In this document: positions 25,562 to 31,375 of the stretch, piece after piece
Numbering within the stretch: the first letter of the stretch is position 1
Layout of the letters: every line of letters begins with the position of its first letter
NCBI GenBank assembly: GCA_027492205.1
Contig: JAOZFN010000006.1
Coordinates: forward strand, 7,369-71,368
Direction: 5' to 3'
From: Thermoproteota archaeon
Lineage (GTDB): Archaea > Korarchaeota > Korarchaeia > Korarchaeales > Korarchaeaceae
Length of the DNA stretch: 64,000 nucleotides
Notes under the pieces: model-generated
Database searches by the model: none
What the model was told of the DNA's origin: nothing
The model's input: only the letters and a program-made list of their open reading frames with translations
Translations under genes and position numbers: made by a program

Positions 25562-26956
25562 TCACCCCTTGTCGGAGAGGTTCCTGTCTCCACCCCGGCG
25601 GAGCGCGCCGGACACCAGCAGGGCAAGCGCCGGCGCGAAGAACGAGTAGAGGTAGGGGTGCACGGGGCCTGACTCAATCCAGACGAGGCTGGCGCTGAGG
25701 AGTATTGGGTAGAGCACCTTCGCAGCGGAGTCTCCCGAGCGAGCCAGCTTGAGCACGCCGCCCGCTATGGCGCCGAGCACTAGGGGAACCGCCGCGACTC
25801 CGACGACGCCGAAGTCTATCCAGATGGGCCCCACCATGGAGGTCGTGTAGGCGACCGGCAGGCCCACGACGGCCTCGCCCGTCAGCGCGCCCACGAGAGG
25901 CCTCGGAATTCCAAGCATGGTCAGCAGAGGGTTAATGAACAGGAGAATTCCGTAGGTCATCCCCCAGGGCGGGTAGGTCTTCAGGATCAGCGTCAGGGAA
26001 TACAGGGTGAAGCCGGCTCTGCTAACGAGGACGTAGTAGGCGTCACCAGTGAGGCCGGCCCTCGCCATGAGTATTACCTTCTGAAAGGTGAACATCAGGA
26101 GGCCGGGGACCGCCAGGTACGCGAGGACCTGCCTGACCTTGACTAGTCCACCCAGCCACATGGCAACGATCAGCGTTCCGAGGGCAACCACCACGTCCAG
26201 CCTGAACCCCGACGGGAACGTGAGGGCGAGGGAAATTCCCATTAGGCCGGCGCAGGCAATAAGGGCGTCCTCCCTTCGAATTGATCCCTTCTGGCCAGCC
26301 GCGGAGGACAACCAAGCAACGAGGGCAGACAGGCCAAGGAGGTACGCGTCGTAGCTGATCATCCAGAATGCGTCGTGCCTTCTCAGCTCTGGGTATAGGA
26401 GGGGAATGGCGCCCAGCCGCAGGTAGTTGACCAAGAGCCCCACGCCACCGGCGATGAGCAGGGGCAGGGAGAAGTGAAGGAGACCCTCGCCCCTCAGCCG
26501 TATGACCGCGCGGCCGGGAACCCTGGAGATCGCAGCCCTAGCGCCCAGCGAGTACGCCGCCACGGCTAAGGTCCACAGCGCGATGCCTGCAACCCACAGC
26601 GTGAGGTCCACTATCGGCAGGGGGCTCACAAGCGCCAGCGCCAGGTAGAGCGCGTAGGCCAGTGGGACGGCCAGCACGGGAGAGGCCGCCCCGTATCTCC
26701 CAGAAGCCACCGCAAGTGTTCTGAGAACGAGGCTCGAGGCCGACGCCTCGACGAGGCGATCGGCGAGTTTGTTGACGAAGGAAAAGGCCCTGCGAAGCGT
26801 GCCCGGAATCCGTGAGATTCTGAGACCTTCGTGGACCTCACAGGCGTGGGCTGTGGGCGCCACGGACGCCAGAATCTCCTCGAGGAACCTGCCGACCGCC
26901 ATCTCAAGCTTGATGAGGATCCTAATGGCTCTCCAGGTTAGGCTCATCGAACCCAC
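25562..26956 (-). CDS. Polytopic membrane protein, putative oligosaccharide repeat-unit (Wzy-like) polymerase of the archaeal DUF70 type
   Basis: About 11-12 TM segments; G.IPLL..ELR, GFR, RAGFT..L, P.G.TYG and T.S.VGP.W.DFG..G motifs recalled from this family. Confidence 0.65.
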   Translation of the reverse strand: MGSMSLTWRAIRILIKLEMAVGRFLEEILASVAPTAHACEVHEGLRISRIPGTLRRAFSFVNKLADRLVEASASSLVLRTLAVASGRYGAASPVLAVPLAYALYLALALVSPLPIVDLTLWVAGIALWTLAVAAYSLGARAAISRVPGRAVIRLRGEGLLHFSLPLLIAGGVGLLVNYLRLGAIPLLYPELRRHDAFWMISYDAYLLGLSALVAWLSSAAGQKGSIRREDALIACAGLMGISLALTFPSGFRLDVVVALGTLIVAMWLGGLVKVRQVLAYLAVPGLLMFTFQKVILMARAGLTGDAYYVLVSRAGFTLYSLTLILKTYPPWGMTYGILLFINPLLTMLGIPRPLVGALTGEAVVGLPVAYTTSMVGPIWIDFGVVGVAAVPLVLGAIAGGVLKLARSGDSAAKVLYPILLSASLVWIESGPVHPYLYSFFAPALALLVSGALRRGGDRNLSDKG

Positions 26957-26959
26957 CCC

Positions 26960-27826
26960 CTATCCCTTGAACTCGACCATGAACTTGGCGTAGCGGACCC
27001 CTTCCACGGAGGAGACGGCCCCGTATATGGCGGACTTCTCTCCCGGGCTTGGTGGTCTGTCGAAGACCACCTTGACCCGGATGTCATACGCCAGCATCTT
27101 GCGCGCGTCTGCAGGCAGCCATGCCCTCAGGATGGAGTCGAGCTTGGTGAGGTCCTCCCAGTTCATGTTCTCCACGACCAAGTAGAAGGGGGTCACCGTC
27201 GAGCCTACGAAGAGGAAGAGGCCGGAGCACTCCTCATTGACCTCACTCTGTAGCCAGTATATCGGAACCTCGTTCCCCCTTATGGCCTCAGAGAGGCCCC
27301 CACCGTGCAGCTTGAAGGACACGAACAGCTCGTATCCCACGCCGCCACTCGACACGGCGCCGGCGACCTCCCCCACCCTGGAGATCAGGTCATCCAATCC
27401 GTCGGTCCACAGTGGGTCCAGGCTCACCAGCAGCCTGTCTACGTTCCTGTCTACCTTGAGAGCGAGTCTGAGGGGGTCGACCTCCTGCGGAAGCGGGTCC
27501 CTCACCTTCTGGTCGGAGGAGTAGACCAGGAACACGTCTCCCCCCGCGCTGAAGTATATGGTCGCCCTGGCTGAGTCCAGGACGAATCCCGTGGAGTTTA
27601 TCAGCGTTCCATTGACGTGGACGCCGAGTATTCCGCCTCTCAGCGAGTATCCCCTGGACCGGTAGAAGTTGGCTATGTACGCGGCCGACTGGCCGCTCCT
27701 CACGTCTCCCCGGTAGTATAAGTGAGCGTTCACCTTCATGTAGGCGACTCCCACCGCGGCGGTCACGACGAGAATGTCCAGCGCGACCCCCAGGAGTCTC
27801 AACGCCCTATCCGACTCCACGGCCAC
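26960..27826 (-). CDS. Single-pass membrane protein, paralog of the upstream gene
   Basis: N-terminal TM LGVALDILVVTAAVGVAY, then SRGY; GTG start after a ggggtgag SD-like sequence (ORF track extends to 27865). Confidence 0.75.
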   Translation of the reverse strand: MAVESDRALRLLGVALDILVVTAAVGVAYMKVNAHLYYRGDVRSGQSAAYIANFYRSRGYSLRGGILGVHVNGTLINSTGFVLDSARATIYFSAGGDVFLVYSSDQKVRDPLPQEVDPLRLALKVDRNVDRLLVSLDPLWTDGLDDLISRVGEVAGAVSSGGVGYELFVSFKLHGGGLSEAIRGNEVPIYWLQSEVNEECSGLFLFVGSTVTPFYLVVENMNWEDLTKLDSILRAWLPADARKMLAYDIRVKVVFDRPPSPGEKSAIYGAVSSVEGVRYAKFMVEFKG

Positions 27827-27827
27827 C

Positions 27828-28655
27828 TCACCCCTCGCGCCTAACCCTGATCCCCTCAGCCCCAATCTCCCGCAGAGAACCTCCGACGGCGTCTGCGTCC
27901 ACCCTCACGGGATCTGTGAGTACGGTAAGCTGGATTGGTCCCGAGATTAATCCCTTCACGGCGACCCCCTCTCTCTCGAGTATCTCAATGATCCTTCTGA
28001 GCAGGGTGGAGGAGTCTTCGGCTGGCACGAATCTCATCTTGACGAGGATCTCATTCCCAGCCGTCTCGACTTCTATGACCCCCCCCTGCCCGGCAGCCAC
28101 GTCCTGAATCAGGCTGGCCGGGATCGTCACGTTGGACTCCTCCATCCATACCCCGACCGTAGCCGACACGAGGCAGGCTTCAACGCCCTCGAAGCGCTCG
28201 AGGATCGTGCAGAGCGACTCTAGGGAGTCCGGTCCTATGGTTTCACTCGGGACTATGGCGTCGATCCTGACCACACCGCTGGGCTGCTCTATTCTCATGA
28301 GTATTCTGCTGGGAACTCCGTTGACGTAGGGCCTGTCGAACTCGTCCGACAGCACTAAGACCCCCCTCTGGGGGTCGAAGAGGACCAGCCTCTTGCTGTC
28401 CGCGTACACGACTCTCCCAATCGCTTTGAATGATCCTCCCGCGTACCAGGCCCCCTCGACCTCGAGTTCCACGGCGTACCCGCGAGATGCCGAGCTGTGA
28501 TAAGTGGCGGCTATGCCCACCATGTTGGCGCCCCGGATGTCGAAGTACCTGTCCCTGGGGGTGACGGCCGCGTAGGCCACCCCGACGGCGACGGACAGAA
28601 CCACCATGTCCAGGGCCAGCCCGAGCGCTCGCCTCTTCGCCCCACCCTCAACCAA
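27828..28655 (-). CDS. Single-pass membrane protein, paralog of the downstream gene
   Basis: N-terminal TM LGLALDMVVLSVAVGVAY, then SRGY. Confidence 0.75.
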   Translation of the reverse strand: MVEGGAKRRALGLALDMVVLSVAVGVAYAAVTPRDRYFDIRGANMVGIAATYHSSASRGYAVELEVEGAWYAGGSFKAIGRVVYADSKRLVLFDPQRGVLVLSDEFDRPYVNGVPSRILMRIEQPSGVVRIDAIVPSETIGPDSLESLCTILERFEGVEACLVSATVGVWMEESNVTIPASLIQDVAAGQGGVIEVETAGNEILVKMRFVPAEDSSTLLRRIIEILEREGVAVKGLISGPIQLTVLTDPVRVDADAVGGSLREIGAEGIRVRREG

Positions 28656-28742
28656 CGCCTCAACCCTCCATTCAGTCGAGCCTTCGCCAGCGGTATGCTT
28701 ATTTAACCGAGGGTAGGCTGGGACCGGGGAGGTCGTGGATCA

Positions 28743-29150
28743 GTGCCGCACTACTACCACGGACCCGTGGCCACCCGCGGAAGAACCCCGACGGGAGGGA
28801 AGATCCGGAAGACTCGCAAGAAGAGGAAGAGGGAGATGGGCAGGTTCCCGGCTCTCACGAGGATAGGAGAGAGGAGACTGAAGCTCATCAGGGCGATGGG
28901 AGGGAACTACAAGCTGAGGCTGCTGAGCGACAGCTACGCTAACGTCGTTGTGCCGGGAGAGGGTGCGAAGAGGGTCAGGATCTTGGACGTGGTGGACAAC
29001 CCGGCGAGCAAGGCCTTCAAGAGGTTCAAGATCATAACTCGCGGGGCGATCATCAGGACCGAGCTGGGCCTGGCCAGAGTGACCTCCAGCCCGGGGCAGC
29101 ACGGCGTGATAAACGCCGTCCTGATGGAGGAGGAGCAGTCTGCCTCGTGA
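28743..29150 (+). CDS. rps8e: 30S ribosomal protein eS8
   Basis: [49 protein letters not shown]. Confidence 0.96.
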
Positions 29151-29466
29151 GCGGAGATCACCCCCGCCACCTCTCGACAGGGCCCGCCTGAGGCCCATCG
29201 GGGTCGTCGAGAGGGTCACGAACTCGCGAAACTTCCTTGTTAGGTATGGAGGACCCGTGGAGTATGATCCCAAGGATCTTAAAGTCGTAGACGAGGAACT
29301 CCGGGTGGTCGGCGTGGTTCGAGACGTGATCGGCCCGGTTTCCGCGCCGTTCTTCCTGGTCAAAGTGACGATTCCCATCGATGAGGCCAAGGGCTACGTG
29401 GGCAGGAGGCTCTACCTCTTGGAGCCGCCGAGCATTTTGGCAAGGAAATTAAGGAACAGCGGATAG
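29140..29466 (+). CDS. gar1: H/ACA RNP protein Gar1, with a probable CTG start
   Basis: [25 protein letters not shown]; the frame is open back to TGA at 29122 with no ATG/GTG/TTG before 29257. Confidence 0.8.
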
Positions 29467-29482
29467 GTCACTCTAGGTGAGG

Positions 29483-29659
29483 ATGCCAGCTAAGTCGGAG
29501 CGGGCGGCGAGCGCGGCGAGGTATGAGCAGAGTGCGCTGAAACTGATAGAGAGGCTCTTGAGCCTTCCGTGCACCAAGTGCCCAAATCTAGGAAGGTGTT
29601 ACGACTCAGCTGCGTTGGAGTGTGGGGAGCTAACTACTTACCTCCTACGAGATCCCTGA
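29483..29659 (+). CDS. Small Cys4 protein resembling the isolated Fe-S domain of TFE-beta/RPC34
   Basis: LPCTKCPNLGRC-x7-CGELTTYL; SD sequence aggtgagg before the ATG; located between gar1 and trm1. Confidence 0.65.
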   Translation: MPAKSERAASAARYEQSALKLIERLLSLPCTKCPNLGRCYDSAALECGELTTYLLRDP

Positions 29660-30821
29660 CGACCTCCTCGATCTCGCCGATGGAGGCATCCGTCTTGATC
29701 GACTTTTTCTCGCAGTGAACCAGGCTCGCTCTGAATCCGCGGGATCTCAGTGCTTTCACCGCGGCCCGGGGGCTTGGCGAGGGCAGCTTCCTCCTACTCG
29801 CCAAGAGATCTAGGTCGTAGTAGAGTGGAGGCATCCCGAGTTCCTGCGAGAGGGACTCAACTATCTCTCTAGCCTCCTCTGAGAACCAGACGCTCTCATT
29901 CAGCTTTTTGAGGGTCGGTTTCACTACCCCCTCGTCGAGAATGTTCCCGACCCAAAGGGGCCCCAGCTTTTCGAGCCTCGATCCGCAGTGGGGACAGGAC
30001 TCCTCCTTCGGCGGGTACCTGCCCTGCTGGATCATCCTCCAGCCGCAGCGGGGGCAATAAGACACCCACCCGAGCATCTCCCTCAGGGACTCCGAGGCCT
30101 TCGTGGCCCCCCTCTCCACCCTGAAGTAAACCCTGGCGTAGTGCCGCGTCGCATGCGCCAGAACGGGCCTCACCGCGAGGTCATAGACGGCGGCAACCCT
30201 AGCCGCGTACGCCGCCAAGATCCTGAGGCCCGCCTCCTTGTGAAATTCCACCTTCCTCCCGTGGGCGAAGTAGACCCGGAAAAGCTTGTCGGGATACACC
30301 CCGTACAGCACAGGCGTGTCGGTCGCGGTCACGGCCAGGATACCGCCGATCCTGACCGCCCCCACGGCCGCCCAGAGGAAGAGTGAAGGCGTTCCGAAGG
30401 GGTCCACGTCTAGGTAGTCTACTCCCCCGCTCTCCTTGAGGGAGAGTGAGGCGAGGTTCGCGTCCATCAGCCACGCATCTACTGAGCCCTCAAGCCCATT
30501 TCTCCTTATCCCGAGCCTTATGGCGTGGTACGCCAGGGGGTTCCTGTCGTTCGCAATCACCGCCGCGCCGGCCTCTGCGGCGAGCCTCAGCGCCCTCACG
30601 CCTGATGCGGCCATTATGTCGGCGGCGACGACCTCTTCACCCAGCAGGGAAGCGACGGCAACCGCGATATCCCTGTTGGACCTCATGTCGGGGTTGTAAA
30701 AGACGCGGGCCTTGGTGTAAGCTAGCCCCAGCCTCTCCAGCTCCTCAAGCTCTGAGGCGTAGAACCTCACAGCGCCCTCCTCGTACTCCGCAAGCGAAAC
30801 CGTTATTCTGCCTCGATCCAC
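29634..30821 (-). CDS. trm1: tRNA (guanine26-N2)-dimethyltransferase
   Basis: VFYNP.M..NRD, AASGVRALR, DVDPFGTP, VTATD, E.GLRIL, CxxC..CxxC and GPLW.G. Confidence 0.95.
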   Translation of the reverse strand: MDRGRITVSLAEYEEGAVRFYASELEELERLGLAYTKARVFYNPDMRSNRDIAVAVASLLGEEVVAADIMAASGVRALRLAAEAGAAVIANDRNPLAYHAIRLGIRRNGLEGSVDAWLMDANLASLSLKESGGVDYLDVDPFGTPSLFLWAAVGAVRIGGILAVTATDTPVLYGVYPDKLFRVYFAHGRKVEFHKEAGLRILAAYAARVAAVYDLAVRPVLAHATRHYARVYFRVERGATKASESLREMLGWVSYCPRCGWRMIQQGRYPPKEESCPHCGSRLEKLGPLWVGNILDEGVVKPTLKKLNESVWFSEEAREIVESLSQELGMPPLYYDLDLLASRRKLPSPSPRAAVKALRSRGFRASLVHCEKKSIKTDASIGEIEEVVRDLVGGK

Positions 30822-30838
30822 CAGCCCGCGGGGGCTCG

Positions 30839-31375
30839 TTGGCAGTAAAAAACTTCATTTTGAGGGGCAGACCCGGCTCTGGAAAATCTACTGCCGCCCA
30901 GATCGCGAGGCAAAGGCTGTCAGAGGCCGGACTCAGGGTAGCTGGCATCGTGACCCCCGAGGTTAGGTTGGGCCGCTCGAGGGTGGGCTTTGAGGTGGTG
31001 GACCTTGCGACAGGGAGGAGGGCGACGTTTGCCCACGTTGACATCCCCTCGGAGACAAGGGTCTCCAAGTACGGCATCTCCATCGAGCTCTTCGAGCAGG
31101 TCGCCGTCCCTGCCCTGGAGGCCGCCCTCAAGGCTGACGTGGCGCTCGTCGACGAGATAGGAAAGATGGAGCTGTTCAGCGATCTCTTCAAGTCGCTGGT
31201 GGTGAGGTTACTGGACTCAGACGTCCCGGTAATAGGGACGGCTCCGTTCTACGACCTCCCATTCCTTCGGGATGTGTTGAGGAGAGGAGACGTGAGGGTG
31301 ATTTGGGTTAGGCGCGGAGAGGCTGAGCGGGTGGCGGAGACGCTGACCGGCGAGGTTATGAGGCTTGTGAGGTAG
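30839..31375 (+). CDS. Nucleoside-triphosphatase, THEP1 family
   Basis: GRPGSGKST, G..T.EVR...RVGF, V.KY and VDEIGKMEL.S; TTG start. Confidence 0.9.
   Translation: MAVKNFILRGRPGSGKSTAAQIARQRLSEAGLRVAGIVTPEVRLGRSRVGFEVVDLATGRRATFAHVDIPSETRVSKYGISIELFEQVAVPALEAALKADVALVDEIGKMELFSDLFKSLVVRLLDSDVPVIGTAPFYDLPFLRDVLRRGDVRVIWVRRGEAERVAETLTGEVMRLVR

Follow-up and report, generated by a model that had tools for sequence, protein, structure and literature searches.

This analysis concerns a 64,000-nucleotide stretch of a korarchaeal genome (GenBank assembly GCA_027492205.1, contig JAOZFN010000006.1, positions 7,369 to 71,368 of the forward strand; hereafter, the window), in which a 58-residue open reading frame (ORF) at 29483..29659 on the + strand probably encodes a natural version of the transcription factor subunit TFE-beta that has shed its winged helix (WH). 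The ORF, which consists of a linker helix and a four-cysteine domain predicted to hold a 4Fe-4S cluster, would be an orthologue of TFE-beta by both descent and position, with binding to TFE-alpha and to the cluster predicted, a reading to which we give a probability of roughly three in four. The original prediction, which was made from the letters of the window, had proposed that this lineage keeps an overlooked, WH-less TFE-beta, and this is borne out by homology, synteny, the missing WH and purifying selection. The product, MPAKSERAASAARYEQSALKLIERLLSLPCTKCPNLGRCYDSAALECGELTTYLLRDP, is read from an ATG at 29483 to a TGA stop at 29657-29659 and contains exactly the motif that had been pointed out, LPC-x2-CP-x4-C-x7-C-x2-LTTYL, within which the cysteines are arranged as C30-x2-C33-x5-C39-x7-C47.

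That the ORF is a homologue of TFE-beta, and an orthologue by position, is well supported by sequence comparison, the assignment resting on matches of a short-form profile, on the spacing of the cysteines and on a synteny shared with longer korarchaeal proteins and with Sso0944 (the TFE-beta of S. solfataricus). The profile (A2) was built from ten short forms only, which keeps it independent of the long korarchaeal forms, and when aligned by hhalign with eight non-korarchaeal TFE-beta-like proteins (A3) it matches over 44 columns that span the linker and the cysteine domain (97.9%, E 3.2e-13). This is the profile-profile check that had been suggested for the proposed kinship with the C-terminal Fe-S domain of TFE-beta/RPC34, and it points the same way as the search of 1.84 billion representative proteins, in which A2 returned 21 matches at E<=1e-3, that is, (i) seven short proteins, (ii) five proteins of 118-203 residues that combine a WH with the cysteines and are matched at their C-terminus and (iii) nine large repetitive proteins. 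Three of the long matches were scanned in Pfam, where P0019 (136 residues, from a Thermoprotei metagenome-assembled genome; A2 E 2.5e-4) passes PF05158 (RNA_pol_Rpc34) with 36.3 bits vs a cut-off of 28.4, and P0017 (20.0 bits) and P0022 (13.5 bits) stay below that cut-off. The nine repetitive proteins (731-2301 residues), which are matched over multiple or very short stretches, were set aside unexamined as repeat noise.

The longer korarchaeal proteins provide a second link. They measure 136 residues in family f3 (genomes G027 and G028), 123 in f4 (G029) and 118 in f5 (G031), occupy the same slot as the ORF, with gar1 (or srp19) on one side and a convergent trm1 on the other, and consist of an N-terminal winged-helix-like region followed by a PC-x2-C-x5-C-xn-C ... 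L..(Y/W)L domain. The 118-residue form of G031 matches residues 283-314 of human RPC6, which are its last 32 residues and correspond to its Fe-S domain (E 0.0018), as well as PF05158, the latter with 22.1 bits (E 1.2e-4) and so short of the 28.4 cut-off. As for the cysteines, the spacing in the ORF conforms to CxxC-x(3-5)-C-x(4-10)-C, the signature published for the family (PMC2770514), and the first three are spaced as C92, C95 and C101 of Sulfolobus TFE-beta, whose C92, C95, C101 and C112 go with a cubane 4Fe-4S cluster (PMC4495717; these two sources, like PMC5861453 and bioRxiv 10.1101/2020.06.29.177642 below, are cited throughout from the excerpts available). The neighbourhood fits as well, a gar1 homologue lying directly upstream of Sso0944 (PMC2770514) and the ORF being found next to gar1 among rRNA/tRNA-modification genes, though without the TFB paralogue that most Crenarchaeota have at this place. 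Together with the korarchaeal WH-plus-cysteine proteins in the same slot, this upholds the claim that the ORF sits at the syntenic TFE-beta locus. Searched by sequence, the PDB yielded no chain of an archaeal TFE-beta Fe-S domain.

What sets the ORF apart from these proteins is the lack of a WH, which had also been claimed. Only ~29 residues precede the first cysteine and the ORF starts 16 nucleotides past gar1, which leaves no room for a WH, and at the loci of the long forms the extra 60-80 codons occupy exactly the position of the gar1-ORF gap. Since the bipartite architecture of WH and Fe-S domain is incomplete, the ORF is classed as a truncated derivative rather than as a canonical member of the family. 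Neither a full-length copy nor a separate TFE-beta-like WH was found elsewhere in this 96.4%-complete genome, in which PF05158 has no match at E<=10 and a 122-position profile covering WH and cysteines retrieves nothing but the ORF at E<=0.1. A separate WH encoded at another locus was considered and rejected: a WH-only profile (A5) yields six weak matches in the genome (best E 0.024), and the two that were inspected look like ordinary regulators, which from their family resemblance we take to be one ArsR-like and one DtxR-like protein. A very divergent stand-alone WH may nevertheless be encoded elsewhere in the genome.

The ORF is conserved in relatives, and at the same place. A translated search with the 58-residue protein in 41 related genomes (that of the window, G000, included; E<=10) matched 17 of them, with identities of 100%, 67% and 52% within the genus and of ~38-40% in other genera of the family. 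The gene order rps8e-gar1-[ORF]-trm1 holds across 14 related loci (L001-L014, by tblastn), with rps8e present in 14/14, gar1 preceding the ORF, or the long form in its place, in 13/14 and trm1 convergent with it in 13/14, the remaining locus for trm1 (L004) running out at a contig edge. Short-form orthologues of 56-61 residues, with plausible starts, come from genera g1, g2 and g4 of family f1 and from g6 of family f2, and 11 genomes from these four genera and two families retain the frame intact and at a constant length. Invariant positions among ten aligned short forms are M1, L25, P29, C30, C33, C39, C47 and L50, of which P29 and the four cysteines are also shared by all 13 short and long forms in the alignment.

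Substitutions tell the same story. By the Nei-Gojobori method, the proportion of nonsynonymous differences (pN) is 0.07-0.36 vs a proportion of synonymous differences (pS) of 0.60-0.77 across eight pairs, and the ratio of the corrected distances (dN/dS) is 0.04-0.25 in seven of them (it could not be computed for the eighth, with a pS of 0.77), values that are rough because dS is saturated (1.2-2.5). Judged from these substitutions, purifying selection acts on the protein that the ORF encodes, the direction being clear even if the ratios are not precise. This answers the search of the gar1-trm1 gap that the original prediction had called for, which returned orthologues at the same locus in four genera and a pattern of change unlike that of a decaying remnant. 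The exact 58- and 60-residue sequences were not found among ~15 billion predicted proteins, which implies that gene callers skipped the gene in this genome, and similar proteins of 56-72 residues were called in other metagenomes. In a word-based look-up of sequencing runs, none of the 15 listed, each with a small word share, was an RNA run. P0011, P0012 and P0013 are metagenomic proteins of this kind (Fe-S-only mini forms of 56-62 residues, with the PC-x2-C-x5-C-xn-C...LT.YL pattern), from which the mini form may be more widespread than the genomes sampled here. One g2 genome (G015, 75% complete) has a partial match (C178:1657-1752; profile positions 8-38, E 0.01) with two internal stops, which may reflect either breakage of the gene or an error in the assembly.

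Across the phylum, three states are seen: long, mini and absent. When 43 korarchaeal genomes were searched with the full profile, a match being required to cover the cysteine domain, 15 had one. The short form is found in the genus of the window, g1 (its own genome and three of four others, the one without it being 72% complete), in g2 (4/5), in g4 (1/1) and in g6 of family f2 (2/2), and the long form in g7 of family f3 (2/2), g8 of f4 (1/1) and g10 of f5 (1/1). Neither was found in g3, i.e., Korarchaeum (0/21), in g5 (0/4) or in g9 (0/1). Korarchaeum includes Candidatus Korarchaeum cryptofilum OPF8, which an exact protein match identifies as G013; in the same look-up, the cluster of the window's trm1 and the long form P0001 bear the label 'Candidatus Korarchaeota archaeon'. 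A moved or diverged copy in g3 or g5 was considered and discarded, A2 giving only short, marginal stretches there (E 0.042-0.32 in 3/21 g3 genomes, E 0.32 in 1/4 g5 genomes) and the loci leaving no room: in K. cryptofilum, rps8e, srp19 and gar1 are followed by an inverted NTPase-trm1 block with no ORF between gar1 and the block, and in g5 gar1 and trm1 are convergent and ~50 nucleotides apart.

The locus itself varies in other respects. Compared with window positions 29150-31375, the Korarchaeum locus (L059:419-1494, G013) has NTPase_1-trm1 inverted: gar1 points towards the NTPase gene there, and trm1 is co-directional with gar1. The srp19 gene lies between rps8e and gar1 in K. cryptofilum and in G029 (locus L041), an srp19-like ORF follows rps8e in G031 (locus L013), where gar1 was not detected, and the window has a 106-nucleotide gap where srp19 sits elsewhere and no srp19.

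These counts revise the literature. An absence from Korarchaeum, which the original prediction had mentioned, is indeed on record: RPC34/TFE-beta was not found in K. cryptofilum according to the available excerpts of a 2009 study (PMC2770514), and a 2018 review lists TFE-beta as 'missing in Korarchaeota' (PMC7289017). The published absence is right for the genus Korarchaeum, where none of the 21 genomes has a match, and wrong for the phylum, since short or long forms occur in other korarchaeal genera. Our literature search, made in the texts of papers, found no TFE-beta described in Korarchaeota and no natural Fe-S-only form; the orthologue list of PMC2770514 (its Additional File 1) and the supplementary tables of PMC12787533 may bear on the point. 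A 2026 paper on Korarchaeota genomics mentions neither RPC34 nor RNA polymerase nor transcription factor in its main text.

How the three states arose can be sketched from a quick tree of two genes (trm1 and rps8e) in 18 genomes. It groups g3 with g5 (SH-aLRT, a Shimodaira-Hasegawa-like branch test, 85), which makes a single loss of the whole gene possible. It also joins short-form f2 with long-form f3 (SH-aLRT 95), a grouping that is flagged as a possible long-branch join and is at odds with the rank labels, by which f1 and f2 belong to one order, and the WH may have been lost once or twice. It is an evenly balanced proposition that Korarchaeota form a natural deletion series, with WH and Fe-S domain together in deep families, a working Fe-S-only subunit of 56-61 residues in several genera and nothing in Korarchaeum. 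To our knowledge, such an Fe-S-only form would be the smallest basal initiation-factor subunit.

The partner that a mini TFE-beta would need is present. TFE-alpha is encoded on contig 12 of the genome (176-177 residues; its PF02002 match reaches 41.8 bits when the genome is searched and 40.9 bits by hmmscan of the translated TFE-alpha frame), and 39 of the 43 korarchaeal genomes have a match to it. The 58-residue protein was modelled with its own TFE-alpha and a 4Fe-4S ligand, using our own alignments, and three runs, with 0.01 for the best control, scored 0.77, 0.74 and 0.74 (median 0.74), a mark attained by 58 of 80 solved complexes and by 2 of 110 mismatched pairs. At least 91% of the contacts are common to the runs, and the pLDDT (predicted local distance difference test) of the partner is at least 77. 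In this model, which is of the kind that the original prediction had proposed to build, the predicted interface involves residues 18-55 of beta and residues 1-18, 55, 93-111, 115-124 and 157-174 of alpha, i.e., the WH of alpha, the helix that follows and the tail.

The modelled alpha interface agrees with the biochemical map available for Sulfolobus (PMC4495717). There, the Fe-S domain of beta is vital for alpha/beta dimerisation and its WH is not (the delta1-73 variant still binds), the WH and C-terminal tail of alpha are required and its zinc ribbon is dispensable, and loss of the cluster abolishes the complex, the mutants there being C92S, C95S and C112S. Sulfolobus beta without its WH still stimulates transcription, with pre-initiation complexes that are less stable (PMC4495717). 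We infer that the 58-residue protein is expressed, holds a cluster, binds TFE-alpha and plays a role in transcription. The N-terminal WH would have been deleted, and what is left would be a linker of ~29 residues and, at the C-terminus, the four-cysteine domain, a 30-residue module that owes its fold to a cubane 4Fe-4S cluster held by the cysteines. This module and the helix that precedes it would clamp onto TFE-alpha at its WH, at the helix following that WH and at its C-terminal tail, and the resulting Fe-S 'clip' would complete a minimal alpha/beta heterodimer on the RNA polymerase clamp and aid promoter opening. The promoter-DNA contact normally added by the WH of beta would be missing, and the cluster could make the factor redox-sensitive, as was proposed for Sulfolobus.

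Besides the saturated synonymous distances mentioned above, several points weigh against this reading. By itself, the 58-residue protein has no family match in Pfam, NCBIfam or the PDB (the sole Pfam line, a spurious MSC domain, is below cut-off, and a word-index search for homologues returned one relative, of 59 residues), and its homology to TFE-beta rests on profiles and transitive links. When A2 was searched against the PDB (E<=10), the sole match was to residues 282-314 of human RPC6, with the four cysteines in register and an E-value of 0.85 that is not significant by itself. The monomer AlphaFold model is poor (pLDDT 59.5, predicted template modelling score 0.26), and the good score of the complex may show no more than likeness to solved human RPC3-RPC6 structures, which the model may have memorised, the run being in addition, with its own alignments and a ligand, outside the calibration of the tool. 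The tail of TFE-alpha is retained in genera without beta and is therefore no evidence for a beta partner, and korarchaeal TFE-alpha may work alone. Finally, the 'good' Shine-Dalgarno (SD) sequence that had been claimed stands in part: a putative SD-like AGGTGAGG is present at 29475..29482 on the + strand, but it abuts the ATG of the ORF, so that the spacing is very short. In six related loci (L005, L007, L008, L009, L010 and L011, the last with GGTGG), GGTGA likewise stands 4-8 nucleotides ahead of the start assigned there, and among the related loci inspected no SD-like motif was found in L003 (genome G003).

The retained tail feeds the likeliest of the alternatives, namely that a small protein derived from TFE-beta has been repurposed and acts on the RNA polymerase clamp alone, as a redox or iron sensor or as a partner in RNA modification, rather than as a subunit of TFE-alpha. 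The closest genera are without the gene and have a TFE-alpha that is apparently unchanged, tail included, which suggests that alpha functions independently of mini-beta in this family. Furthermore, the Fe-S domain in human Pol III also contacts the RPC1 clamp and RPC7 (bioRxiv 10.1101/2020.06.29.177642), which would suit a protein working on the clamp. A role in RNA modification could be read from the company that the gene keeps (gar1, trm1, fibrillarin and nop5), yet bona fide crenarchaeal TFE-beta is found in the same neighbourhood (PMC2770514), and the model of the complex, in which alpha was the sole partner modelled, passes its controls with the very interface that was mapped in Sulfolobus. 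On balance, we consider repurposing unlikely.

A different doubt concerns the metal, since the four cysteines of a truncated TFE-beta could form a small zinc knuckle instead of holding a 4Fe-4S cluster. The domain was originally predicted to be a Zn finger (PMC2770514), and the last spacer is x7 in the ORF vs x10 in Sulfolobus (C101-C112) and in human RPC6, a difference for which the published signature, which permits x4-10 at this place (PMC2770514), leaves space. Since a cubane 4Fe-4S cluster is present in both members of the family that have been tested, one from Sulfolobus (TFE-beta) and one from human (hRPC39) (PMC4495717; bioRxiv 10.1101/2020.06.29.177642), and the four cysteines and the preceding proline are invariant in the short forms, zinc appears quite improbable. 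Least probable is a decaying remnant or a chance ORF, either unexpressed or non-functional. That the exact sequence is missing from ~15 billion predicted proteins and that sister genera have lost the gene entirely would fit such decay, which is hard to square with an intact frame of constant length in 11 genomes from four genera and two families, invariant metal ligands, a pN far under pS and similar 56-72-residue proteins in other metagenomes. A WH-less TFE-beta that partners TFE-alpha is thus the reading that we retain.

The conserved block opens with rps8e (ribosomal protein S8e, 28743..29150, + strand; PF01201 E 2e-35), followed by gar1 (H/ACA RNP protein, 29257..29466, + strand), for which the Pfam Gar1 match (E 1.6e-5) reaches 25.0 bits, below the 29.3 cut-off. 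With the gar1 stop codon at 29464-29466 on the same strand and 16 nucleotides between the two genes, gar1 and the ORF are probably co-transcribed. The trm1 gene (tRNA m2,2G26 methyltransferase, 29634..30821, - strand; PF02005 E 2.3e-87) is convergent with the ORF and its 3' end overlaps the last 26 nucleotides of it. The position after gar1 and opposite trm1 that had been described is therefore confirmed by Pfam matches and coordinates, and so is the lack of tfb in the gar1-trm1 cluster, the TFIIB-domain matches of the genome being on two other contigs. Contig 6 of G000 has a two-repeat TFB gene, and contig 9 (G000:C9:344880-345080) a 333-residue frame with one TFIIB cyclin repeat only (33 bits), which may be a divergent TFB paralogue.

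The PC-x2-C-x3-5-C-x4-10-C motif occurs once in the window vs a mean of 0.14 per mononucleotide shuffle (maximum 1 in 100 shuffles), and as such is weak evidence for a gene; it is conservation in relatives and the profile matches that lift the ORF above chance. A search of 28500-31000 with Rfam (E<=1) revealed no RNA family at the ORF and two sub-threshold matches elsewhere in that span, and a scan for sigma-70 promoters and terminators, with models that are unsuited to archaea, gave nothing at the locus.

Past trm1 come an NTPase_1 gene, fibrillarin and nop5. The NTPase_1 frame (30446-31375, + strand, 309 residues) has a PF03266 match (E 4e-42) that spans residues 137-299 only, so the true start is probably internal, at ~30830-30850, and divergent from the start of trm1 at 30821. 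On the other side of the block, two adjoining and slightly overlapping ORFs on the - strand (26960-27865 and 27828-28655; 301 and 275 residues) resemble each other in their N-terminal hydrophobic segments and are without a Pfam match at E<=0.001; they may encode lineage-specific surface or secreted proteins, and their neighbour (25562-26956; PF01901 E 7.7e-27) encodes a putative O-antigen-polymerase-like membrane protein.

What these findings change in the first place is the phylogenetic record, in which the absence of TFE-beta is now confined to the genus Korarchaeum and one sister genus, the phylum otherwise having either the full protein or a WH-less form. They also have a lesson for annotation, since the WH-less form escapes both gene callers and Pfam, so that a ~60-residue gene in an essential pathway goes systematically unannotated. 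In Sulfolobus acidocaldarius, tfeB is essential. Korarchaeota also offer a natural experiment on what the WH of beta is for and on whether selection maintains the Fe-S module alone. If the Fe-S-only form is a working subunit, the core job of TFE-beta would be to stabilise TFE-alpha on the polymerase clamp in an Fe-S-dependent manner, and possibly to gate it by redox state, and the DNA-facing WH would be dispensable in vivo.

Compared with Sso0944, the S. solfataricus TFE-beta (Blombach et al. 2009, 2015), the mini form has the same C-terminal PC-x2-C-x5-C-xn-C followed by an L..(Y/W)L helix and the same position downstream of gar1 among rRNA/tRNA-modification genes, but it differs in its last cysteine spacer (x7, not x10), in having no adjacent tfb paralogue and in having no PF05158 match on its own. 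It lacks the N-terminal WH, which is half of the canonical architecture, and its 58 residues contrast with the 118-136 of the korarchaeal long forms. In size and content it comes close to the engineered Sulfolobus TFE-beta delta1-73, a variant that retains both dimerisation with alpha and support of DNA melting and of which it would be the natural counterpart, and with ~29 residues before the first cysteine it corresponds approximately to delta1-62 and keeps the linker needed for stability (PMC4495717). Human RPC6 (also known as RPC34 or hRPC39; PDB 7a6h chain P) likewise has its four-cysteine Fe-S domain at the extreme C-terminus, where residues 282-314 align with residues ~25-55 of the ORF in a direct match that is weak (E 0.85), but it is a stable polymerase subunit of 316 residues with several WH domains. 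The closest parallels for a lineage-specific reduction of TFE-beta/RPC34 are haloarchaeal TFE-beta and C34 of S. cerevisiae, which, during the evolution of TFIIE and Pol III, kept the WH and lost the cysteines and the cluster (PMC4495717; PMC5861453), whereas this korarchaeal lineage would have done the reverse.

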